The translations under genes and the position numbers were made by a program. Of a DNA stretch of 64,000 nt, positions 68 to 54,079 are shown piece after piece (within the stretch, counting starts at the first letter, position 1; each line of letters starts with the position of its first letter). The notes below the pieces were generated by a model that had not been told where the DNA came from, did no database searches, and saw only the letters and a program-made list of their open reading frames with translations. The stretch comes from a virus: IMG/VR virus record IMGVR_UViG_3300042898_003434, positions 1-64,000 of that record. The stretch is one strand, 5' to 3'.

Positions 68-172
68 TGATTCGCATGGTTGGATTCGAACCAACGGCAC
101 GTGCTTTATCACACTTTTGCGGTGTCATTTACCATCATAGTGAGCACTGGTCTACCTCTGAACTACATACGA
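68..172 (-). tRNA. tRNA-Ile(GAT) with 30-nt insertion (112-141) in the anticodon loop
   Basis: Acceptor TCGTATG/CATGCGA, D-arm, anticodon stem GTGCT/AGCAC, T-arm GTTGG-TTCGAAT-CCAAC; 37-nt loop collapses to canonical CT-GAT-AA if 112-141 is removed; ends A-TCA rather than CCA. Confidence 0.7.
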
Positions 173-452: not shown

Positions 453-472
453 TTTAAATTGTAAACAAAATC

Positions 473-916
473 TTATTCTTTGTTTTCTTCTTCTAGTCTT
501 TTATATTGATTCGAGATCGCCATAATACTAGACATAAATATTTTCTTGGTAGCGGCTCTGTCGATACCAACTGCTTCTGCTTCAATGAAAGCATCTCGCA
601 TTGCTTTTTTCATCTTGTTTTCAAAATCAACTTTGATCTTTTGAACTTTTTGTCTAGCACCGGCCCGCATCTTAGATTGCTTACCACCGCCAACGCCTGG
701 ATTTTTTGGATCAAACGCTTTCTTATATTTTACACCCTTGTCATGTGTTTGAGCAAATCTGTCGTAGTGGGATTTACCACTGTCTGGACTTTCTGGTGCA
801 AACGTTTTCTTGATGCCTTTCCACATATCGGATCCCCAACCTTCATCCATTTCGTGTTCTTGAACGACTTCTTGAACGCATTCAGCTATTAGTTTCTTTA
901 GATCTTCGTTTGTCAT
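473..916 (-). CDS. hypothetical protein with N-terminal LKKLIAE leader motif
   Basis: 147-aa ORF, TATTTATA motif 15 nt upstream, followed by a terminator. Confidence 0.75.
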   Translation of the reverse strand: MTNEDLKKLIAECVQEVVQEHEMDEGWGSDMWKGIKKTFAPESPDSGKSHYDRFAQTHDKGVKYKKAFDPKNPGVGGGKQSKMRAGARQKVQKIKVDFENKMKKAMRDAFIEAEAVGIDRAATKKIFMSSIMAISNQYKRLEEENKE

Positions 917-969
917 ATATTGTGTATTTTATATAAATATACATATAATAACAAAAACATCTAATAATT

Positions 970-1057
970 TGGTAGAAGGAGAGGGATTCGAACCCACGGA
1001 AGCTTTCGCTTCGGGAGTTTAGTAAACTCCTGCTTTAAGCCACTCAGCCATCCTTCT
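970..1057 (-). tRNA. class II tRNA with ACT anticodon (tRNA-Ser(ACT))
   Basis: AGAAGGA/TCCTTCT acceptor, GGAGT-TTACTAA-ACTCC anticodon arm, long variable hairpin GAAGC-GAAA-GCTTC, CCA. Confidence 0.85.
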
Positions 1058-1068
1058 ATGTACTAAAA

Positions 1069-1154
1069 TGGTGGGCACGCTTGGACTCGAACCAAGGGTT
1101 ATCCGAAGAGGGGAGATTTACAGTCTCCTGCAATAGCCGCTATGCGACGCGCCC
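1069..1154 (-). tRNA. tRNA-Tyr(GTA)
   Basis: GGGCGCG/CGTGCCC acceptor, GGAGA-CTGTAAA-TCTCC, long variable region, CCA. Confidence 0.93.
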
Positions 1155-1160
1155 ATAAAA

Positions 1161-1269
1161 TAGTGAACCGTATAGGAATCAAACCTATCGACATTCTGTT
1201 CCATGCTTTAGCGTCATGTTGAATGTTCAACGTATTAACACCCGTAAGTGTTAAGATCAGTTTCGGTCC
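1161..1269 (-). ncRNA. tRNA-like RNA of non-canonical architecture
   Basis: Acceptor-like GGACCG/CGGTTC, T-arm ATAGG-TTTGATT-CCTAT, internal hairpins TTAACAC/GTGTTAA and ACATTC/GAATGT enclosing CATG/CATG; ends A-CTA. Confidence 0.55.
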
Positions 1270-1277
1270 AAAAAATT

Positions 1278-1316
1278 GTCATTTGAGTCAACCTCAATTT
1301 CGCCAATGACGTGGCG
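1278..1316 (-). ncRNA. compact pseudoknot element
   Basis: CGCCA/TGGCG stem whose loop GTCAT pairs with downstream ATGAC, with a TGAG/CTCA hairpin in between. Confidence 0.45.
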
Positions 1317-1325
1317 TTTGCAAAA

Positions 1326-2156
1326 TTATTCATATACTTTGATAAAATCTTTCCCATATTTTTGAATTGCATAATCAAGATACGGCTTTATCTTTTTTCT
1401 GTCGATGATTTCTAAATTGTGTTTAAATTGTGCATGTTTAGCCGCCCATTGTTTTGAGTTGTACCCTTTGACTTCGACGTAAGATTTATCCCCAACTATG
1501 AAATCGGGGTAGTATTTATGCGTCTGTGTTTCGAATTCATATTCAAATCCTTCGGTGTTTCTTTTGAATTTTATATCGTGGTCTAAAGCATAAATAACCC
1601 ACGCCAGTTCCCAAGAACTCTGACAATAGAATCCTTTATACCAACCTTGTTTACCTCTACCTCCTTTTTCTCGGAAACCTCCATTTCTTGACAAATCTCT
1701 CTTGGTATTGGAACATTTATGCGAACAAAATTTTCTCCTAGATGTCACAGGTTGAAATTTATTTCCACACCCTTTACATAGCACGGGTTTTAATTTTTTT
1801 TCGCCGTTGAACCAAGGATTTGTTTTTGATAAAATTGATTGCATCTTTTTCTCATTATCCGTCCAATGTCTGTGCCCGCCATCTTGTTGATTGAATGTTG
1901 CTGCACAAGCGGTGGAACAAAACTTGTTGTCTTTTTTGTTGTACGCCATGGAATCTCCACAGTATTTACATAGATTTGGATTATTCCTATATGCATTTTG
2001 TTTTTCAATATATTTTATTTCGTTTTTCTTTTTTAACGAAGATACTTGACAAATATTTGTACAATAGTGTATTCCTGTCTTTGACCTATTCACCTCGGAC
2101 TTTGATTTATTAAAGTCTATCCCACACTCTTCGCATTTACATTGTATCATATTCAT
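1326..2156 (-). CDS. putative free-standing homing endonuclease, PD-(D/E)xK (TnsA-N-like) with Zn-ribbon repeats
   Basis: SSWE...YYPDF...YVEVKG nuclease motif; three CxxC...(F/Y)Cxxxc units; embedded in tRNA array. Confidence 0.75.
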   Translation of the reverse strand: MNMIQCKCEECGIDFNKSKSEVNRSKTGIHYCTNICQVSSLKKKNEIKYIEKQNAYRNNPNLCKYCGDSMAYNKKDNKFCSTACAATFNQQDGGHRHWTDNEKKMQSILSKTNPWFNGEKKLKPVLCKGCGNKFQPVTSRRKFCSHKCSNTKRDLSRNGGFREKGGRGKQGWYKGFYCQSSWELAWVIYALDHDIKFKRNTEGFEYEFETQTHKYYPDFIVGDKSYVEVKGYNSKQWAAKHAQFKHNLEIIDRKKIKPYLDYAIQKYGKDFIKVYE

Positions 2157-2298: not shown

Positions 2299-2616
2299 TT
2301 ATTTTTTATTCAAGAAATCTTCTGGTTTCTTAGCAAACTTCTTTGAAAGAAGTGTTAAACCTTGAAGGATTTCTGGACTTATCACACCAGTTATGCCATA
2401 ACTGATTGCTTTTGTCAAGCTACTTACTTCAACTTGTTCTAAAATAAACCATGCTATTGTTGAACATATCGCAGCAGCGATGATTCGTTTGATTTGTTCG
2501 GTGCAAGTACGTTTTACACCATCCATGAAAGTTCTTGCCAACATGCCCAGTGCCCCAAGTAGAGCAACAATCCATCCGCCTCTTAAGAACTCCATGAGTA
2601 TATCTTTATCTTCCAT
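2299..2616 (-). CDS. small membrane protein, holin-like
   Basis: 105 aa, 2-3 hydrophobic helices, basic C-terminus; TATTTATA motif upstream. Confidence 0.5.
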   Translation of the reverse strand: MEDKDILMEFLRGGWIVALLGALGMLARTFMDGVKRTCTEQIKRIIAAAICSTIAWFILEQVEVSSLTKAISYGITGVISPEILQGLTLLSKKFAKKPEDFLNKK

Positions 2617-2688
2617 AAATTATAATGTATGTTTATAAATATGTTTCGTATCTAACAAAACTTCATTTTTATTTACTTTTTTTAAACT

Positions 2689-2772
2689 TGGTGGTGCCGA
2701 TGGGACTCGAACCCACGTTGTTTGTATATCTGGTTAAGAGCCAGAGCTATTCGCCGCTATAGGAACAGCACC
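2689..2772 (-). tRNA. tRNA-Lys(CTT) with enlarged 12-nt variable region
   Basis: GGTGCTG/CGGCACC acceptor, TCTGG-CTCTTAA-CCAGA, T-arm GTGGG-TTCGAGT-CCCAT, CCA. Confidence 0.85.
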
Positions 2773-2822
2773 ATGATAGTTTTTATTTATAGTCGCAACT
2801 AACAATAACGACTGTAAAATAT

Positions 2823-3005
2823 TTGGAGAAAAGCGCTCATCCTACGATCCGTAGGTAATATTGCGCCTTTCTCCAACTTTATACTAAAAATAACATGTCA
2901 CTTCGGCCTCACAACAGATAAACTATCTCTGTTGATATTGATTCCCACAAAACGGTCGCTATCGCGCCGGTGGCTATTTTAGTGCTTCGGGGTGCATTTT
3001 TACCC
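2823..3005 (-). ncRNA. structured non-coding region at the 5' end of the tRNA array
   Basis: Long hairpin 2823-2876 and a multi-stem junction 2883-2983; no long ORF; GC-richer than flanks. Confidence 0.45.
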
Positions 3006-3049
3006 ATCTAAATTGTACTGTGAAAAAACTTGAAATTGATACTTCCTCG

Positions 3050-3077
3050 ACTCTACTTACTTTTTTTTATTTGTCAA
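3050..3077 (-). promoter_or_regulatory. sigma70-type promoter facing the tRNA array
   Basis: TTGACA-16 nt-TAGAGT. Confidence 0.6.
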
Positions 3078-3098
3078 ACTTTTTTTATCAAATATCCT

Positions 3099-3135
3099 AA
3101 AATAAAAAACCCACCTCTTTTTAGGAAGGTGGGGC
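3099..3135 (-). terminator. intrinsic terminator (attenuator hairpin)
   Basis: CCCACCT/AGGTGGG stem followed by TTTTTTATTTT. Confidence 0.85.
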
Positions 3136-3163
3136 AATTTAGGTTAGACTTTTTATAATCTCC

Positions 3164-3277
3164 TTATGCCACACCTTTCGTATCACGACCTTCATTGGCT
3201 CCTAGTGTCGGTTGCGCAATAAAGCACAAGCTCCAATAGGAGTTCGAATTTTGTGATTTATGTGCTACGCTGTTCAT
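3164..3277 (-). CDS. 37-aa leader peptide of putative tRNA-array attenuator (MNSVAHKSQNSNSYWSLCFIAQPTLGANEGRDTKGVA)
   Basis: ATG..TAA ORF below the ORF-track cut-off; contains all 20 amino acids; last codons are complementary to the terminator 5' strand; TATTTATT motif at 3299-3306. Confidence 0.7.
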   Translation of the reverse strand: MNSVAHKSQNSNSYWSLCFIAQPTLGANEGRDTKGVA

Positions 3278-3393
3278 AGAAATGATGCTTTGTTATTTAA
3301 TAAATACAACGATGATATGAAAAAAATCAAATGTCAAACACTTTTTTATTAAAAAAGTAATATTTTTTCACTTTTCTTGTTAAAAACGATGAA

Positions 3394-5469
3394 TTATTTG
3401 GAAGTTGCTCTAAAAACGCCGTCCCAATCTGGGGGAAGATTACTCTTTCTAAGCTCTCCGATTCTTTCTATCATCATCTCATAATAGTGTATAAGTTCTT
3501 TATTATGTTTCATTAACACTTCTGCTGTGCTAATTGCTTTATCCCAATTTTGCATTCTGTATTGATTCAAAAACTCGGAATGTACCGAAAAAACTGCACT
3601 TGGGAAGGGCATTCCTTGGTTTTCAAGTACGGTATAAATTTTCACGCCTTCTTTTTTACCTTTGACGGCAATCCAATCTAACTCAGTTATATTCGTAATT
3701 TTTACACCGTTTTGTTCTTTTTTGTATTTTTCTACAGTATTTTCTCCCAAAATAATCAACACGCCGTATGTTTTAGTTTGGCCTTCTAGTCGCGACGCAA
3801 GATTCACCGCGTCTCCAAGTATATCATAACTAAACCGCTCTTTCGATCCCATATTTCCAACAACAACCTCTCCGGTATTTATTCCTATACCAATTGAAAG
3901 AGTTGGAATTCCTTTTGCTTTCAATTCCGCGTTGAGTTGAGTTAATGCAATATTCATTTCACGCGCAGTTTTTATTGCAAGTGTTGCTTGATCTTCGACA
4001 TGAATTGGTGCCGACCACCACGCCATCACGGCGTCTCCGATAAGTTTTCCAACGGTACCTTCATTTTTCATTACTATGGGCAACATAGCATCCATATAAA
4101 GATTGATGAGCGACGTTAATCCTTGCACGTCTTTTCCAAAATGTTCAGATAACGCGGTATACCCTCTTATATCGGAAAATAATATAGTTAATTCTTTAGA
4201 TTCCCCTCCCAATTGTAATAAATTTGGATTCTTCTGCAACTTTTCCACCATTGCTGGGGCGAGATATGTACCGAACTGCTTCTTGATTTGCATCTTAAGT
4301 TTATATTCCATCACAAATCTCATGAATATTGCTCCTACCCACGGTAAAAACAAAGCAAGTGTTGGCCAAGTATAATCCAATAAGTAACCATGTTTGTTGA
4401 AAACATAAAATCCAACTGCGGTTGGTACGCACAACAGCGCAGTTACCAATACTCCGTTGTAAACATATCCGAGATATGCAGCGGCTAAAATTAAAAGTAT
4501 TCCAAAGGTTGCACCAACGATTAGTTCATACAAATCAAACTCGGCTTTTCTTTCCAGTCTGTTTCCATCTACCAACATCTGCAAAGTTTGCATACTAACT
4601 TCATATCCTTGAGATATTCCAACCGGCGTTGCTACTGTGTTCGCCAATCCTTCAGCCGTTAATGCCATCACAACAATCTTCCCACTTGCTTTAGACCAAT
4701 CTGCGTCGGTGTATGAAATACTCTCAAATTTGTATTTAAAATTGACCCACACTCTGCCGTTTGCATCGGTGTTTATCGGCGGTGTACCTTTTACTCGAAC
4801 CGCTTGTATTCCGGCGTCATTTATTTTCGCTTGATAGCTGGGTTCTCCACCAAAGACTCGTAGAATTTCTAACGGCAGGGTTGGATATGTTTCTTTTTTA
4901 ACTTGTATAATTAAAGGTAATCGTCTCACCACCCCATCCAGTTCCGGCGCTGTTAATAACATGCCCACACCGGCAGACGACTCTCCGATTTCTTTAACTG
5001 GACCGATTGCATTCGGATAATCATATAACCAACCGTCAGATTGACCTCCAACACTTGCTAGTCCTCTTGGAACAGGAACTCCTTTGCCTTTTACAGATGC
5101 AGATTGCGACGTGATAACAGGAACTTTTTGCAGAATGTCGATGAATTCTGGGTCTCCGCCCATTCTATCTTTTTCAGCGAAAATAATAGGAAGAACGACA
5201 AGCGCAGCCTCGTTTTCAAATGCTTTCTTTATACCGTCGGCCAACTCTGTTCTTGGCCATGGCCATTGACCTTTTTCTTCCAAACTTTTCTCGTCTATTT
5301 CAATTACAACCACATTTTCACTTTTAACTTTTGGTTGTGATCGTTGATAATAATCCAACCCTTTCAATCGTATTACTTCTATTGGGTATGGATCTACTAT
5401 TCGCAATGTTATTATAGAAACCAATATAATTGCGCCCACGGCAAATAATTTTAATAGATAAGATTTCAT
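3394..5469 (-). CDS. CHASE2-domain class III adenylate cyclase
   Basis: GQWPWPR and DGVVRRLPL CHASE2 motifs, three TM helices, cyclase motifs FSDIRG, KLIGDAVM, GINTG, YDILGDAVNLASRLE. Confidence 0.95.
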   Translation of the reverse strand: MKSYLLKLFAVGAIILVSIITLRIVDPYPIEVIRLKGLDYYQRSQPKVKSENVVVIEIDEKSLEEKGQWPWPRTELADGIKKAFENEAALVVLPIIFAEKDRMGGDPEFIDILQKVPVITSQSASVKGKGVPVPRGLASVGGQSDGWLYDYPNAIGPVKEIGESSAGVGMLLTAPELDGVVRRLPLIIQVKKETYPTLPLEILRVFGGEPSYQAKINDAGIQAVRVKGTPPINTDANGRVWVNFKYKFESISYTDADWSKASGKIVVMALTAEGLANTVATPVGISQGYEVSMQTLQMLVDGNRLERKAEFDLYELIVGATFGILLILAAAYLGYVYNGVLVTALLCVPTAVGFYVFNKHGYLLDYTWPTLALFLPWVGAIFMRFVMEYKLKMQIKKQFGTYLAPAMVEKLQKNPNLLQLGGESKELTILFSDIRGYTALSEHFGKDVQGLTSLINLYMDAMLPIVMKNEGTVGKLIGDAVMAWWSAPIHVEDQATLAIKTAREMNIALTQLNAELKAKGIPTLSIGIGINTGEVVVGNMGSKERFSYDILGDAVNLASRLEGQTKTYGVLIILGENTVEKYKKEQNGVKITNITELDWIAVKGKKEGVKIYTVLENQGMPFPSAVFSVHSEFLNQYRMQNWDKAISTAEVLMKHNKELIHYYEMMIERIGELRKSNLPPDWDGVFRATSK

Positions 5470-6683
5470 CTTTGAGTAATGTTTACTTTCAGTTTTGATC
5501 CGAAATTCAATAGATAATCTTCAGTACCATTTTGATCCGTTACAGAGAATGTAGCATTTGTATCCACCTTTACTTTATAAAAAATCGTACCTTTTCCAGT
5601 GCTTATATTTAAAATCGCACTTATGCCGTCCGTAGTAAATCCGCCGTTTGTAATAACAGTTCCCATGGTGATCGCTCGGGTGGCCGCAGTTTGTAGTGCA
5701 GTAGGTATAGATTGTTTCAACAATGCATCTATAATCGCAATACCGGTTTCAGGTTGTAGTTTACTGATATCAAGAGTAACGGACGCCAATTCAACCGACA
5801 ATGAACTTGAAGCTTCTTCCGTTTGAACTTCCGCCACCGATGCTTCTTCGGATGACGTGCTGCTTTCTGAAGAATTTTCCACCTGTGCTACAGATGTCGA
5901 CTGGTTTGATACGGCAGTTGAATTACCTTTTGCATCTACTTTAGCAGATGCCGATTTTTTATTTGATGATCCGTCGTCTTCTTTACTTACTTGTACGGGG
6001 GCTTTTTTAGCTTCTTTTGCTGCCTGTGTTACCGATTTTGGCGTATCTAGTATCAACATATTGTTAACTTTTGTTTCGTCGTCGAAATTAAGAAGTACCG
6101 GTGCAGACGGTACTACATTTGACGATGCGACTAATGTGGCCTGATATGCTTTTGTTAACACCACCGTCCCAAGCCCGTTTGTAACTTGTATACTTCCCAC
6201 GACCGGTGGGCCATATTGCGCAAGTGATGGTAGTAGAATTATCAAACTTCTACCAAGCTCGTCTACGGTCAAGGAAAAGTCGGTCCCACGCACGGCCACC
6301 GACGCCGTAGGGGTGTTGATTTTTACTTCGTCTCTATTATTTTTTGCTATAAGTCCGGACGCGTATCTAATCGTTCCGAGTGAGGCTTTCAACCCCAATT
6401 TACCTTTGCCACTCGCTGGATCATATACAAACGTATCTATAACCAATTTACTGAATTCGGTGCATTGAACTCTGGTGCCGTCTACGAACGTAATACCTAC
6501 ACGAGATCTTAAAGTCTCGATAGTATCTTCCATTTCTATTTCGACATCAAGTTTACCGTCAATTTTATCGTAGTCTCTTGTCACTTGAGTAGGACCAGTC
6601 ACCTCGGTAATTTTACCGGCAGCACCGAATAAGTTGGAGCAAAATAATACCCCAACTAATATCAGTATAACTTTTTGAACCAT
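5466..6683 (-). CDS. exported FecR-domain protein
   Basis: Signal peptide; ITFVDGT and INTPTASVAVRGTDF FecR motifs; Ser/Glu-rich linker. Confidence 0.85.
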   Translation of the reverse strand: MVQKVILILVGVLFCSNLFGAAGKITEVTGPTQVTRDYDKIDGKLDVEIEMEDTIETLRSRVGITFVDGTRVQCTEFSKLVIDTFVYDPASGKGKLGLKASLGTIRYASGLIAKNNRDEVKINTPTASVAVRGTDFSLTVDELGRSLIILLPSLAQYGPPVVGSIQVTNGLGTVVLTKAYQATLVASSNVVPSAPVLLNFDDETKVNNMLILDTPKSVTQAAKEAKKAPVQVSKEDDGSSNKKSASAKVDAKGNSTAVSNQSTSVAQVENSSESSTSSEEASVAEVQTEEASSSLSVELASVTLDISKLQPETGIAIIDALLKQSIPTALQTAATRAITMGTVITNGGFTTDGISAILNISTGKGTIFYKVKVDTNATFSVTDQNGTEDYLLNFGSKLKVNITQR

Positions 6684-6686
6684 TCC

Positions 6687-7487
6687 TTATGGATTTGGCG
6701 GAGCGATACTAGTAGTAGGATCGGCTGGACCCGTTGGGCCAGTTGTTCCGCCAGTTGTCATCACAGGAGCAGCGCCGCTTGTAGTTTGCACTATGCGAAC
6801 CGTGTTTCCACTTCCTACCAAACTATATTGGAATGTTTGTTTTTCTACACCCGACTGGTATACCGTTAGATCGTTTGTGCTTCCTTGGATGGTGACTTTC
6901 TGTTCGTGACCATCTTTAGCAGCAACTCCACCCGTTGATCCGATTTGAGTTGATTTGACAGTATTGGAATTACCAGTGATACTATAATCAATGTAGTTAT
7001 AGTCGGCATCTTTGATACCAAACTTCAATACATTAGAGTTACCAGTAACATCTAATATTACGTCAGAGTTAGCCATAGTCGCTTTGCTCTCATCGGTATT
7101 AGATGTATGATCAACGGTCGTGTCTTTGTTAAACAACACACTATTACTGTCACCGGTCAAAGCAATGTTCATGTTATTGCTTGCTCCATTCAAATAGTAT
7201 TTTTGTATATTACTGTTACCTGTTGCGACCGATAATAGTTTCAAGTTGTCCGCTCCGGTAATAGAGAAGTCCGTGGTATTATTATTGCCCATCTGCCGCA
7301 TTTCAAATAAGATGTTATCTCCCGTTATGTCCGAGGGTGTTCCACTGGAGACCCCAATTTTATTGAGACTTCCGACTTGTATCAACGTTGTGCTTCCAGC
7401 GGTGGTTATTTGATTTACGTATATTTGATTTTGACCGTATGCGGTCAATCCAAAGAATATAAACATTAGTGTTAGTATTTTTTTCAT
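6687..7487 (-). CDS. curlin-like repeat (beta-solenoid) secreted protein
   Basis: Signal peptide; repeated (Q/T)GxxN motifs (QVGSLN, QMGNNN, TGNSN x3, TGDSN, QGSTN); adjacent to csgG. Confidence 0.75.
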   Translation of the reverse strand: MKKILTLMFIFFGLTAYGQNQIYVNQITTAGSTTLIQVGSLNKIGVSSGTPSDITGDNILFEMRQMGNNNTTDFSITGADNLKLLSVATGNSNIQKYYLNGASNNMNIALTGDSNSVLFNKDTTVDHTSNTDESKATMANSDVILDVTGNSNVLKFGIKDADYNYIDYSITGNSNTVKSTQIGSTGGVAAKDGHEQKVTIQGSTNDLTVYQSGVEKQTFQYSLVGSGNTVRIVQTTSGAAPVMTTGGTTGPTGPADPTTSIAPPNP

Positions 7488-7498
7488 TTTATTTATTT

Positions 7499-8290
7499 TT
7501 AAGGGTTGAATCTCCAGAGCTTCATCTTTTCACCTTGTTGTATTATATCAATAACCGCTTTGTCTATGGCGCTTCTAACCGCAATGGTGTTTGGCTCGTT
7601 TGCGGTTAAACCCAATTCCGATTCTATAGGCAACGTTCCATGCTCATAGAATCTGAATAGATTACCTGACACTGCTACACTGGAAATTGTTTTTGTTACG
7701 GCGGTACTAAGTAACACTTCCCCCGTTTGAACACTTACAAATCTTAAAGATACGGTCACAACATCTTTTCTATACTGTGCGCTGGACGATATACCGAGCA
7801 CACTTGCCCCCGCGCCACCTGTCAGGATGTTAGAATCATATCCAATGATCCCGCCTTCAGCTATTATACCGGCAAATAGCATAGGCGTGAGTTTTTCTGC
7901 ATTCCTACCTTGAAAAGTTTCCCGTGTCTGACTAATCAACTGCCTTTCTTTTATTATATTATCCAGATTTGCTCGCTCTAACACTTGAAACCACGATCCT
8001 CCACCGGCGGTTCGCAATGAATCAATCAACCAGCTTTCTGCTCCTTGTGTTACTGCCGACGAAAATGATGCATAATTATCAATGATTTTTCTTTGACCGG
8101 TTTTATCTGTATACGAGTACACAGCAATTGTTATCTTTGGTCCATCAGGCGACGGCAATGCCATCAATTCTTTTTCCAACGGAGAATGTTGACTCCTTGG
8201 TACATCCAGTATACTGGGCGTTTTTGTTACAGAAGCACAGCCGCCAAACAATAAAGATAATAATATAACCGTGATAGCATATATTTTCAT
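7499..8290 (-). CDS. csgG: curli secretion channel lipoprotein CsgG
   Basis: Lipobox LFGGC, AVYSYTDKTGQRK, SSAVTQG, WFQVLER, EGGIIGYD; start reassigned to ATG 8290 (ATGA overlap with csgF). Confidence 0.92.
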   Translation of the reverse strand: MKIYAITVILLSLLFGGCASVTKTPSILDVPRSQHSPLEKELMALPSPDGPKITIAVYSYTDKTGQRKIIDNYASFSSAVTQGAESWLIDSLRTAGGGSWFQVLERANLDNIIKERQLISQTRETFQGRNAEKLTPMLFAGIIAEGGIIGYDSNILTGGAGASVLGISSSAQYRKDVVTVSLRFVSVQTGEVLLSTAVTKTISSVAVSGNLFRFYEHGTLPIESELGLTANEPNTIAVRSAIDKAVIDIIQQGEKMKLWRFNP

Positions 8291-8754
8291 CCCTGTGGTA
8301 TAGGTGATAATGAACCGACTGGGACGGTTATTTGAGTTGTTCTTCCGCTTGCAGGATCTACGATATATAACGTAGCAAACTCGCCATTTCTCTGCCAAGT
8401 AACTGTGGATCCGCCCTGTAAGTTAATTACACCAAACGTTGCGCCAGAAGAATTGAATATCTGGTCTGTTACTTGCGATGCTAGTTGCGAGTATATTCTA
8501 GCTTGAAGATTGTTTATAAACGTGTTTAGGGGGGTGTTTGACTCTTGTATCTTAGTTTGTTCGGCTTCCGACTTGATAGTTTCTTTTATTGCTTGTTTTC
8601 GAGTTCTTGCTAAGTTTTCGACTGTCATCGCAGTATTTGAAAAATTAGCACCATTAAACGACGAAGATTTAAAAGAATATACCATGTCGCTGCCGTATAC
8701 AACTACGGTGCAAAGTGATATCAGTAAGAATGATATGTATTTTTTAATGTGCAT
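8287..8754 (-). CDS. csgF: curli assembly protein CsgF
   Basis: Signal peptide then MVYSFKSSSFNG; FINNLQARIYSQLA; TTQITVP. Confidence 0.85.
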   Translation of the reverse strand: MHIKKYISFLLISLCTVVVYGSDMVYSFKSSSFNGANFSNTAMTVENLARTRKQAIKETIKSEAEQTKIQESNTPLNTFINNLQARIYSQLASQVTDQIFNSSGATFGVINLQGGSTVTWQRNGEFATLYIVDPASGRTTQITVPVGSLSPIPQG

Positions 8755-8949: not shown

Positions 8950-9318
8950 TTACTTTACGATTGTCATGCGACAAGTACCCCAACCAGTCAAAACACCAAC
9001 CGTGGCATTATAAATAATATCTTCGGACGATATACCCGTTACTTTTTTATGTTGATTTGCAATTTCAACACTCCATTTCATCTTTACTTCTACACCATTC
9101 ACATCAAGTTTAATTCCCTGCGATACCTCGAATGTGTTTGGATCATATATACGATCCGTGATCAATAAAACTTTAATTTTATCATTTGAAAATGCAGTTT
9201 GTAACCTAGATTCTAGAGTTGATGCTATAGAATCGTTGTATTCTTTTTTATTATTTGTATCTTCAATGCTCGCGTTTTTATCTTCCACATCAACTATTTT
9301 TAATTTTTTCTTTGTCAT
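8950..9318 (-). CDS. hypothetical protein
   Basis: 122-aa ORF with ATGA overlap to upstream gene. Confidence 0.6.
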   Translation of the reverse strand: MTKKKLKIVDVEDKNASIEDTNNKKEYNDSIASTLESRLQTAFSNDKIKVLLITDRIYDPNTFEVSQGIKLDVNGVEVKMKWSVEIANQHKKVTGISSEDIIYNATVGVLTGWGTCRMTIVK

Positions 9319-9689
9319 ATATTTTGGTTTTTAAATGAAGTTAAAATTGCGTTTATATTATCTCTTCCTATAGGATTCATTGAATGAACTGTATATTCCG
9401 GTATATCCAATTTATTGTCCATACAATATTCTATTAGCCATTGTGCGCAATGAAATCCTGTTCTTTCTTTGTATTTGTCATATGTTGGAGCTGTGCCAGC
9501 GGCACCTTGTGCATAATGTTCAGCGCCCAAGTCATGATCAAAAGTTATAAAATCTGGCAATCCATGTTGTGTAATATACTTAACAAAATGATCATAACTA
9601 CGAACCACAACCCAAGGACCGAGTGGGATCTCTATCCACTTTACATGCGTTGGATTTCTTTCGTCGTCAAGAAATAATTTATAACTCAT
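9315..9689 (-). CDS. cyclic-phosphate-processing receiver-domain protein
   Basis: LFLDDER, FDHDLG, TG and VHSMNPIG motifs; start reassigned to MSYKLF (ATGA overlap). Confidence 0.8.
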   Translation of the reverse strand: MSYKLFLDDERNPTHVKWIEIPLGPWVVVRSYDHFVKYITQHGLPDFITFDHDLGAEHYAQGAAGTAPTYDKYKERTGFHCAQWLIEYCMDNKLDIPEYTVHSMNPIGRDNINAILTSFKNQNI

Positions 9690-10210
9690 AGAAATGTTGC
9701 TCCAGCTCTTGCTTTCTTGCAAGCGTCAATTTCATTTTCTGTTATGGGATGTAGGTGTTCTTTACTAACTCGCCACGCTGGATTCCAGTTGTTGGGATTG
9801 AAATAGTATTTTGGCTGACGTACTTCTTTACCATACATCCAACCGTAGAAATAATACTCGTTGTTAGAACTGAACTTTGCAAAAATATATTTACGATCTA
9901 TCGAGTCGTTTTCTCTAACAATTAATCCACCGGACGGGTGGGCGCTAGAACGAATTTCGTGAATACCGTCGTCCGGTATTTCGTGAAATTCATTCATGTT
10001 GTGTTTGAACTCCACGCCACAAATTTTCGACCATGCGATTTCTGCGCCATATCCAACAATACCCCAACCCAGAGCCTCAGACTTATTTGCTTTCTTGACT
10101 GTAAACGAGTTGAGTTTTGATTTTCTAGATTCGTTGTAAACATAGGTTGCATAATCTTTGGCAAATTGCATTTCCTCTGGTTTCATTTTATATATAATTG
10201 GCATTTTCAT
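9686..10210 (-). CDS. hypothetical protein, possibly restriction-endonuclease-like fold
   Basis: GYGAE...PDDG...EIRS pattern resembles a PD-(D/E)xK core; weak. Confidence 0.45.
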   Translation of the reverse strand: MKMPIIYKMKPEEMQFAKDYATYVYNESRKSKLNSFTVKKANKSEALGWGIVGYGAEIAWSKICGVEFKHNMNEFHEIPDDGIHEIRSSAHPSGGLIVRENDSIDRKYIFAKFSSNNEYYFYGWMYGKEVRQPKYYFNPNNWNPAWRVSKEHLHPITENEIDACKKARAGATFL

Positions 10211-10228
10211 AAATTTTATACATCTATA

Positions 10229-11251
10229 TTATTCTTTATACTTCTCAAGGAAGCGATTCGATATTGTCTTAAAACTCATACGACCTTTAAGAACGTCGCT
10301 GTAAATTTCACAAGCAGAACGCCAAACAATGCCTTCGGCTGGTGTACCATTGTCATAGTTTAGATTGTTGGCAATATTAAGCAAATGACTAGTATCTATT
10401 GGAACAACAGCCCCGCCAAAATCAAGACGATGTACGGTTGGAACCACATTCAGTCCATGCTTTTTTGCAAAAACGGAAAGTTCATTATGAGAAAGATATT
10501 TTCCAGTGTCTATATCAAATAGATTGAATAGATACAACTTAGATTCCGATAAACCAAGACGATTTGCTTGAATAGATGGGCCGCATATTTCTCCTTGAAT
10601 AGAAAGATTACGAGGTTCGTTACGAAGAATTTCTTCAAGTTTCAACTTGCGCGCCATTCTCCAATGAGCATTACCTTCCGTTTCCTTTAAGTCAAGGTTG
10701 CGAGAACAAACACCAAACTCATCATCGCGTCGGTATGCAGTAAAGCTTGTACCGTCCATTTTGAGTGTGCCAACGAGCACAAGACCCTTGGATACAGCTT
10801 CGTCAAGTACTCTTGGCTCAGATTGTAAACGAGTTTCATCGGTTTTATGTAGAAATGCAGGAAAGTTGCCTTTAGCCATGCCAGATAGGTGAGCGGGCAC
10901 AATAGGCTCGTATTTTTCAACGCCAACGAGCTGTGTAACATCTTGTCCCACTTCATATTCACCTAACGGAATAATAGACAGTGGCATAGCCAAGCCTTGC
11001 GACAATTGGCCACGAAGACGAATTGTACGTACTCGTAGTTTCTTACCTTCTTCTTTGCGTAGATGGTCATTCCATTGTGCAATAGGAAGAACACTATCGA
11101 TTTCAAAATAGACACATCGGTCCCCGACTTGAAACTCTGACTTTTTTACAACGCATTCCCATCCAAGAACCTTGGCGCAAAGAATAGCGTCTGCCCCGTT
11201 TATTGGAGACAGTTCCTTTATAACTTGAATTGATGCTAGTTTACGGTCCAC
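10229..11251 (-). CDS. ATP-dependent RNA ligase, DRB0094/Rnl5 family
   Basis: N-terminal OB module (RKLASIQ, YFEIDS, LRGQLSQGL); KTDETR, KMDGTS, QGEICG, EGIVWR, SFKTIS ligase motifs. Confidence 0.92.
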   Translation of the reverse strand: MDRKLASIQVIKELSPINGADAILCAKVLGWECVVKKSEFQVGDRCVYFEIDSVLPIAQWNDHLRKEEGKKLRVRTIRLRGQLSQGLAMPLSIIPLGEYEVGQDVTQLVGVEKYEPIVPAHLSGMAKGNFPAFLHKTDETRLQSEPRVLDEAVSKGLVLVGTLKMDGTSFTAYRRDDEFGVCSRNLDLKETEGNAHWRMARKLKLEEILRNEPRNLSIQGEICGPSIQANRLGLSESKLYLFNLFDIDTGKYLSHNELSVFAKKHGLNVVPTVHRLDFGGAVVPIDTSHLLNIANNLNYDNGTPAEGIVWRSACEIYSDVLKGRMSFKTISNRFLEKYKE

Positions 11252-19168: not shown

Positions 19169-19615
19169 TCATATGGTAATAACACTGTCGAACCCCTCTG
19201 CCTTTGTGGGTGAATGCAGTTTATTAGCTTGTTTGTCTATAACAAACTCTGGAACTTTACGAGTTCTGTGTGAATTTTGTTGTTTTGCCACATCAACCGG
19301 CGTATCAATAAAATACGCTCGCACCTCTGCATTATTTACCTTTCCAATTTCGATCCAGTCCTTACGGTCTTTTACACTAAGACTTGTGGCGTCGATTATT
19401 GTATTCTTTCCTTGAGAAAGAGAATTATCTACGCGGTGTTTTGCAACATCAAATACCCTGCCGTTTTGTGTTTGATCTCCGGCGTCTCCCGTCAACTCTT
19501 GGCGTATCGCATCAGTCTCAATCAATTGAGCATTTAAAGATGTCTTTAGTCCATTGGCATAGGTGGTTTTTCCGGAGCCGCTAATGCCAATCATTACTGC
19601 TAAAATAGGTTTCAT
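19169..19615 (-). CDS. P-loop polynucleotide kinase (AAA_33-like)
   Basis: GISGSGKTT, D.IRQEL, IIDAT, R.RKVP; promoter TTGACA-16-TATTCT at 19623-19650. Confidence 0.85.
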   Translation of the reverse strand: MKPILAVMIGISGSGKTTYANGLKTSLNAQLIETDAIRQELTGDAGDQTQNGRVFDVAKHRVDNSLSQGKNTIIDATSLSVKDRKDWIEIGKVNNAEVRAYFIDTPVDVAKQQNSHRTRKVPEFVIDKQANKLHSPTKAEGFDSVITI

Positions 19616-54026: not shown

Positions 54027-54079
54027 AGTTTGCGATGTGTATATAAATATAACTCCCTATGTAAAAAAAGTATAAGTGC

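Follow-up and report, generated by a model that had tools for sequence, protein, structure and literature searches.

A candidate leader-peptide attenuator with an amino-acid-complete reading frame precedes the tRNA array of a T4-like phage

The DNA analysed here, referred to as the window, is a stretch of 64,000 nucleotides (nt) from IMG/VR record IMGVR_UViG_3300042898_003434, namely the first 64 kilobases (kb) of a 90.6-kb viral contig that is ~39% complete. The source phage is a large T4-like myovirus in which family B polymerase and tail sheath genes are present; its closest cultured relative by polymerase is Microcystis phage Mel-JY01 (42% identical), and its sequence is common across lake-water metagenomes. 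Nearly all genes of the window lie on the minus strand. In that direction, a gene for a CHASE2 adenylate cyclase (5469-3394) is followed by a short leader unit, which is the subject of this work, and then by a tRNA array with interspersed small open reading frames (ORFs). The array reaches the start of the window, where it is cut off by the contig end. The features of the leader unit and of the region behind it are as follows, with promoters P1 and P2 to be kept apart from helices P1, P2 and P3 of the antiterminator.

3309-3337, minus strand: promoter P1 of the micro-ORF, TTGACA (3337-3332), a 17-nt spacer and the -10 element CATCGT (3314-3309), read from the sequence.
3300-3306, minus strand: TATTTAT motif, nearly invariant in the family, from alignment and from its enrichment upstream of genes.
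3164-3277, minus strand: leader micro-ORF of 37 codons plus TAA with all 20 amino acids, from ORF translation, its ATG, frame and stop kept in 31 units.
3126-3177, minus strand: predicted antiterminator, a three-helix hairpin (-18.3 kcal/mol), from folds and covariation.
3104-3133, minus strand: intrinsic terminator (-12.3 kcal/mol), an 8-bp G+C-rich stem with an 8-nt loop (3133-3110) and a T-run (3109-3104).
3050-3077, minus strand: promoter P2, TTGACA, 16 nt and TAGAGT with an A-tract upstream, from a promoter scan and alignments.
2790-3025, minus strand: conserved structured RNA with no Rfam match, 44 base pairs by RNAalifold and compensatory changes in 26 of these.
2689-2772, minus strand: tRNA-Lys(CUU), the first gene of the array, from tRNA scans.

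A preliminary description of this DNA had placed the ORF directly upstream of the tRNA array and proposed that it acts as an attenuator leader sensing general tRNA depletion. The array does follow the ORF, but a promoter and a structured RNA of ~250 nt intervene before the first tRNA (2772). A recount of the ORF (3277-3164) gave the 37 amino acids plus TAA, the 20 amino acids and the 30 distinct codons that had been reported, and the four Ser codons (AGC, TCA, TCG and TCC) and three Ala codons (GCA, GCG and GCC) could be read directly.

Relatives of the unit were gathered in three ways, through the neighbouring cyclase gene, through the leader peptide in viral contigs and through the leader peptide in metagenome contigs. 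The combined set of lake-phage relatives holds 36 distinct loci, in which the unit occurs in 31 distinct versions. The whole block of promoter, ORF, hairpins, terminator and second promoter is 70-98% identical in nucleotide sequence among the relatives, and the cyclase protein in those same relatives is 69-83% identical. Some relatives carry 0.5-0.9 kb of extra sequence between the cyclase and the leader unit, suggesting that the unit travels with its downstream sequence. A tRNA array on the same strand lies 0.3-2.3 kb away in every locus with at least 1.2 kb of downstream sequence (26/26), and in a complete relative of 297 kb the leader unit is followed by 30 tRNAs that cover 18 amino acids. 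At the DNA level, the leader element has no relative among GenBank phages. A homologue of the leader peptide was absent from four records searched of more distant phages with the same cyclase, two of which are at least 93% complete (196-218 kb), one of them with 36 tRNAs. The hairpin model likewise gave no match in the short loci searched from such phages, and the region inspected above the 36-tRNA array holds protein genes and no obvious leader analogue. As a side observation, in L106 (G003:C1:69000-74000), a complete 218-kb relative without the leader, a 475-residue ORF (453-1880, minus strand) adjoins the 36-tRNA array; judged by eye and not against a family library, we take it to have a Ro/TROVE-type look.

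The comparison argues for coding selection on the micro-ORF. Its ATG, frame and stop codon are retained in all 31 distinct units, and the differences in peptide length that were inspected are whole codons. At the conserved residues His6, Ser8, Ser17, Ile20, Gln22 and Pro23, codon changes fall almost solely at position 3. Parsimony changes by codon position are flat overall (72/84/89), because conserved and variable codon classes are mixed and the variable positions change freely. The pairwise ratio of non-synonymous to synonymous divergence (dN/dS) is mostly 0.3-0.55 and lies below 1 in most pairs. The pairwise synonymous divergence of the ORF is only 0.35-1.26, which we tentatively read, from the ORF by itself, as constraint at the RNA level too. 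No Shine-Dalgarno sequence precedes the ORF, which is normal for this phage, since only 4 of its 45 genes have a Shine-Dalgarno-like sequence, and the micro-ORF shares the upstream TATTTAT motif with real genes of the phage. From these comparisons we conclude that the leader ORF is translated, presumably in vivo as well. The AGGAG after its stop codon was considered as a ribosome-binding site and rejected: no conserved start codon follows, Shine-Dalgarno sequences are rare in the phage, and the segment forms helix P2.

The preliminary description had singled out both the amino-acid completeness and the codon diversity of the ORF, and the two fared differently. In windows of this phage's proteome, a 37-mer contains all 20 residues with P ~1e-3, and among the 142 short ORFs of the window that start with ATG, two reach 20 residue kinds, so a single instance of completeness is weak evidence. 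Codon diversity proved unremarkable, with 30 distinct codons against 29.2 +/- 1.6 expected for this peptide from the codon usage of the phage (P = 0.43). It shows only a mild excess across the family, and we rejected it as a selected trait.

The completeness hypothesis came from one sequence, and the relatives provide new data for it. All 31 units, with peptides of 36-40 residues, contain 19 or 20 residue kinds, and 16 of them contain all 20. Three more distant peptide clusters found in a protein search also have 19-20 kinds, one having all 20 in 41 residues, and taken together the units and these clusters hold 19-20 kinds in 36-43 residues. The kinds missing from one leader or another include Glu, Leu, Cys and His; where Leu is missing, the contigs end within the arrays. 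The residues present in single copy (Y, C, V and H) relocate rather than vanish. The single Tyr stands at column 14 in the clade of the window; most others have it at column 4, and a third clade at column 9. In one clade, Arg takes the place of Cys18 and a Cys is gained at position 25, one sister sequence having neither, and Val36 is replaced by Ala in two separate lineages, each with a Val elsewhere (position 17 or 28). In L098, His and Tyr are exchanged. We simulated peptide evolution on the unit's tree with site rates derived by parsimony and a complete root, both of which favour the null. The simulated mean was 18.6-18.7 +/- 0.4 kinds per tip compared to 19.5 observed (P = 0.008-0.015), and the probability that all tips keep at least 19 kinds was 0.002-0.005. 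The outcome was the same under BLOSUM-based, frequency-based and codon-neighbour models, although the test is a crude one. On these grounds we consider it quite likely that amino-acid completeness is a maintained property of the family.

The end of the ORF is predicted to take part in a switch between two RNA structures. The terminator stem-loop (3133-3110) and its T-run are present. Pairing by hand and the predicted folds agree that GAAAGGTGTGGC at 3179-3168 pairs with GCCCCACCTTCC at 3135-3124 at 10 of the 12 positions, and the AGG/CCT pairs of the spacer, together with a small spacer hairpin, appear in the predicted fold. In helix P1, the last codons (AAGGUG-U-GGCA) pair with UGCC-C-CACCUU, a single U or C being left unpaired; the 5' side consists of the Gly-Val-Ala codons and the C-rich partner doubles as the 5' arm of the terminator. 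Helix P2 is formed by the AGG just past the stop codon and CCU, and helix P3 is a small hairpin whose sequence varies by clade while its pairing is retained. An internal loop between helices P1 and P2 holds the stop codon, which in L094 follows helix P2 instead. The 5' arm of the terminator shares 7 nt with helix P1 in the window, and 3-9 nt in every sequence examined.

The same three-helix hairpin was found in all 24 distinct sequences folded (24/24), one of which is a shortened segment. Energies across sequences range from -15.6 to -24.7 kcal/mol for the hairpin and from -10 to -17.6 kcal/mol for the terminator, so that the two overlapping structures are predicted to be close in energy. When the whole segment is folded, some sequences have the hairpin and others the terminator as their minimum-energy state, as expected of a poised switch. 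In a plain MAFFT alignment, 86.6% of the cells pair and the covariation exceeds 500 of 500 shuffles. After realignment with a covariance model, which is fitted to the model and therefore leans towards the structure, 91% of the cells are paired compared to 31-61% in slid controls, and the covariation score is 0.152 compared to 0.068 for shuffles (0/500 reach 0.152), with five pairs changed on both sides. The terminator is also conserved, with compensatory changes. The strongest single point for an RNA switch is, in our view, the clade of L094, L098 and L100, which has a different terminator (CCCGCC/GGCGGG). Here, a separate CCACACCC segment pairs perfectly with the codon strand GGGUGUGG and overlaps the terminator by 3-5 nt, suggesting that pairing to the end of the ORF is selected in its own right and is not a by-product of similar G-rich strands. 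Of 10 terminator-like hairpins detected across the window, this is the only one whose 5' arm can be sequestered by a more stable structure upstream. The relatives keep terminator, ORF and complementarity together, none of them retaining the terminator alone. The expectation that relatives would conserve codon diversity and antiterminator covariation, with a free peptide sequence, was borne out in part: the covariation and 19-20 amino acids are kept, but codon diversity is unremarkable and the peptide is partly conserved.

Taken together, these data point to transcription attenuation through a leader peptide: at the head of the phage tRNA region, a ribosome-dependent attenuator would sense general translation, a reading to which we give a probability of roughly 55%. 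RNA polymerase would start at promoter P1 or at the phage-type TATTTAT element and transcribe the 37-codon ORF. The last three codons (Gly-Val-Ala) and the bases after the stop codon would provide the 5' side of the three-helix hairpin, whose 3' side is the 5' arm of the terminator. If the last codons are free of ribosomes at the time the terminator is transcribed, the three-helix hairpin would form first and block the terminator, and transcription would continue past promoter P2 to the structured RNA and on into the tRNA array. A ribosome that keeps pace and stands on the last codons or the stop codon would instead melt helices P1 and P2 and free the terminator arm, and transcription would stop. 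Between the stop codon and the terminator stem there are 30-41 nt, which would place the terminator outside the ribosome footprint. Terminator efficiency in E. coli was ~90% at a distance of 28 bp from the preceding stop codon and <10% at 5 bp (PMC4824070). From this distance and these efficiencies, a ribosome on the last codons could melt helices P1 and P2 without covering the terminator, whereas a ribosome delayed more than ~5 codons earlier would leave the hairpin intact. Since every amino acid occurs in the ORF, the ribosome would fall behind whenever any charged tRNA ran short or translation slowed in general, and more transcripts would pass the terminator. We infer both the direction of the switch and that read-through matters despite promoter P2.

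The anatomy is that of a leader-peptide attenuator, but of a variant. Four defining features are present: a short ORF, for whose translation the evidence is comparative, a terminator after the leader, an antiterminator that shares bases with it, and an ORF end that overlaps the switch strand. Several observations weigh against the attenuator. The unit departs from the type in three defining features: it has no runs of regulatory codons, it lacks a protector hairpin, and a promoter stands between attenuator and genes. Without such runs, and with most amino acids occurring once or twice in the leader, a shortage of one of them would slow only one or a few codons, and sensitivity would be modest. 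No conserved anti-antiterminator (1:2 protector) was found in the relatives, and as a result an untranslated RNA would read through by default. The 5-bp CACAC:GUGUG was tried as a trp-style 1:2 protector and rejected, as it shows no covariation and is lost in L098 and L078. Of the 24 sequences inspected, 23 keep promoter P2, and L094 is without a clear copy. The array would thus be independent of read-through, which could at most add to its expression, unless promoter P2 is off at some stage. About a third of the peptide positions are invariant (13 when only close relatives are compared, 8 across the wider set). A pure codon sensor would not lead one to expect this, and it suggests that the peptide itself matters, either in trans or as a nascent chain. 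Finally, array tRNAs of the complete relative could read 28 of the 37 codons by a hand count, compared to ~68% expected, which is not significant; the tRNA set of that relative is nearly complete, and the test is therefore without power. With these points included, the attenuator interpretation of the preliminary description is partly supported, by the architecture and by most of the comparative tests, but codon diversity lends it no support, and peptide conservation and promoter P2 complicate it.

The coexistence of promoter P2 and the attenuator would be explained if host-type promoters were shut off during infection. In this extended form, the leader would be a universal translation gauge in which any charged-tRNA shortage, caused by starvation, host anticodon nucleases or a codon-usage mismatch, opens the terminator, and read-through may be the sole route into the array once host-type promoters are off. 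The leader has the phage-type TATTTAT element, whereas promoter P2 looks host-type, and the arrangement could give an on-demand tRNA supply late in infection. We offer this extension as a tentative one, which we would sooner doubt than adopt. Leader-peptide attenuation is textbook bacterial sensing of one amino acid. If the attenuator is real, it would widen this logic to general translation capacity in place of a single amino acid, to phages as well as cells, and to tRNA supply beside biosynthetic genes. This would bear on why large phages carry tRNA arrays and when the arrays are used, and the signature of amino-acid completeness could serve as a search key for similar sensors.

We compared the unit with known systems. 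In the published full texts searched, neither leader-peptide control of tRNA genes nor an all-amino-acid leader is described. The attenuators of amino-acid operons, such as thr (Thr and Ile), ilvGMEDA (Ile, Leu and Val), trp, his, leu and phe, sense one to three amino acids via codon runs. They resemble the unit in having a short ORF followed by a terminator and an alternative hairpin that shares the 5' arm, with the position of the ribosome selecting the hairpin. In contrast to their codon runs for one to three amino acids, all 20 occur here once or a few times each; their 1:2 pause or protector hairpin has no conserved counterpart here; no promoter follows their attenuator, whereas promoter P2 is conserved here; and their targets are biosynthetic genes, whereas tRNAs and a structured RNA lie downstream here. 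In the pyrBI and pyrE attenuators of E. coli, a closely following ribosome prevents the terminator from forming, so that coupling leads to read-through. There too, output is set by the distance between ribosome and polymerase on a leader ORF ending near the terminator and not by one amino acid. The present ORF differs in that it ends 30-41 nt before the terminator and the ribosome would melt the antiterminator, so that coupling would lead to termination.

The nearest published biology is the trn array of Anabaena sp. PCC 7120, which holds many accessory tRNA genes and is induced by translational stress, with rtcB co-regulated (PMC8421152). As proposed for the phage unit, an accessory tRNA array is turned on when translation is impaired, and RNA repair genes are co-regulated there. 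It differs in being controlled at the promoter, where direct repeats are bound by the repressor TrcR (PMC8421152, PMC10272220), and the words attenuator, leader and terminator are absent from PMC8421152.

The same block could also be a microprotein gene that stands alone between a promoter and a terminator of its own, and its 37-residue peptide would act in trans via its conserved core (W..CFIAQP..G..EGD..G). The hairpin would then be a 3'-end structure affecting mRNA stability or translation termination, and adjacency to the array would be inherited gene order. A complete unit of promoter, ORF and terminator followed by a separate conserved promoter is what such a gene would look like, and the 13 invariant residues and a dN/dS below 1 agree with it. 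A profile search of 1.8 billion representative proteins returned only 8 clusters, seven of them the same peptide (37-43 residues) and the eighth a weak, partial match, a narrow family that fits a lineage-specific small protein. In that search the peptide showed no homology to a described protein family, and the protein atlas gave no usable match. However, AlphaFold2 yields no confident fold (predicted local distance difference test score, pLDDT, 57), and the low synonymous divergence of the ORF was read as RNA-level constraint as well. A microprotein gene would also leave unexplained why 19-20 residue kinds are preserved through relocation, and why the hairpin overlaps the terminator arm so constantly, even where the terminator sequence differs. 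We therefore regard it as an unlikely explanation, albeit one with a real claim.

An attenuator that works by nascent-peptide arrest, in which the core stalls the ribosome on a specific signal (a small molecule, a factor or an antibiotic-like insult) and so sets the antiterminator, seems improbable to us. The core around W15-P23 is conserved, and by the geometry of the sequence a stall at the Pro codon would leave the helix P1 strand free; several positions in and around the core vary, however, no known arrest motif was recognised, and the amino-acid completeness would be unexplained. In macrolide resistance operons, leader ORFs that sense ribosome stalling control transcription attenuation, and such mef(E)/mel-type leaders are alike in that a leader ORF turns a general translation insult into terminator read-through (PMC4335068). 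They differ in that they respond to drug-bound ribosomes at particular peptide motifs and serve bacterial efflux or protection genes, not phage tRNA genes, and amino-acid completeness is not one of their features.

It is very improbable that the terminated transcript of ~190 nt is mainly a small regulatory or dual-function RNA whose alternative folds serve a role in trans: the predicted folding energy of the full transcript is much lower than that of shuffled sequences (z = -3.9), its structure is conserved, and the trp attenuator RNA and peptide released in Sinorhizobium (rnTrpL/peTrpL) are a precedent, but the consensus structure is weak outside the 3' hairpins (covariation term -1.4), no target was identified, and the leader segment engaged in long-range pairing when the window sequence is folded is deleted in relatives. 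Because of this deletion, the long-range closing stem of the window's 208-nt fold was rejected as a part of the conserved structure. In Rfam 15, which includes the T-box and other leaders, the window gave no gathering-score match for the leader and nothing at 3100-3300, and a permissive search of 2600-3500 (E up to 10) returned nothing meaningful.

Around this unit, two types of start signal are found. The -10 element of promoter P1 is CATAGT in relatives and weak in the window, and the promoter scan consequently missed it; an A-rich tract precedes the promoter, which is conserved in all aligned relatives. The TATTTAT motif lies 1-45 nt upstream of the starts of long ORFs 12 times, compared to 1.1 expected (P = 4e-10), and is probably a phage-specific promoter element; further minus-strand examples of TATTTAT(A) stand at 54049, 47453, 43917, 37309, 28371, 2641, 2167 and 939. 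Together with the scarcity of Shine-Dalgarno sequences, it points to a phage promoter motif with very short leaders and to Shine-Dalgarno-independent initiation. A 'late' class for this promoter motif was not borne out, as it precedes genes for a holin-like protein, a homing endonuclease and a ribonucleotide reductase subunit alike. The element is carried by the leader and not by promoter P2. The latter had been raised in the preliminary description as a caveat, and a sigma-70-like promoter is indeed present downstream of the terminator, at 3077-3050. After it, many relatives carry a GTTCTTT(T)AA(C/A)AA-like stretch (window ~3010-3040), which may resemble the boxA antitermination element of rRNA operons.

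The structured RNA at 2790-3025 would be the first product transcribed from promoter P2 or by read-through. Its covariation term is -9.4, and it is present in L055, L063, L073, L075, L080, L094-L100, L076, L081 and L083; in L078, L071, L102 and L103, a different 5' module replaces its first half. Rfam gave no match to it at E up to 10. Parts of the RNA are found in metatranscriptome contigs, and one such contig spans 2816-3112, across promoter P2 to the 3' arm of the terminator; these public data are low-depth assembled contigs of related phages in which RNA ends are not visible and DNA carry-over is possible.

Within the array, the Rfam tRNA model matches a 102-nt stretch at 71-172 (minus strand) with 44 bits, where ARAGORN makes no call, consistent with a tRNA carrying an insert. 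A tRNA-Ser gene at 970-1057 (minus strand) has the anticodon ACT in the window and its closest relatives, and GCT at the same place in more distant relatives. On the other side of the leader unit, the cyclase gene belongs to a phage-borne operon (3394-8398, minus strand) of a CsgG-like protein, a FecR-domain protein and the CHASE2 adenylate cyclase, the last of which is kept in ~50 viral contigs at identities down to 36%. Genes for RNA repair lie 6-16 kb upstream of the array, at 9315-11251 and 19169-19615 (minus strand), a setting that would fit the attenuator reading. The set comprises an RNA ligase with a PHA02142 OB domain, a cyclic-phosphate processing receiver domain and a P-loop kinase, and it also shows a weak match to a tRNA-ligase phosphodiesterase.

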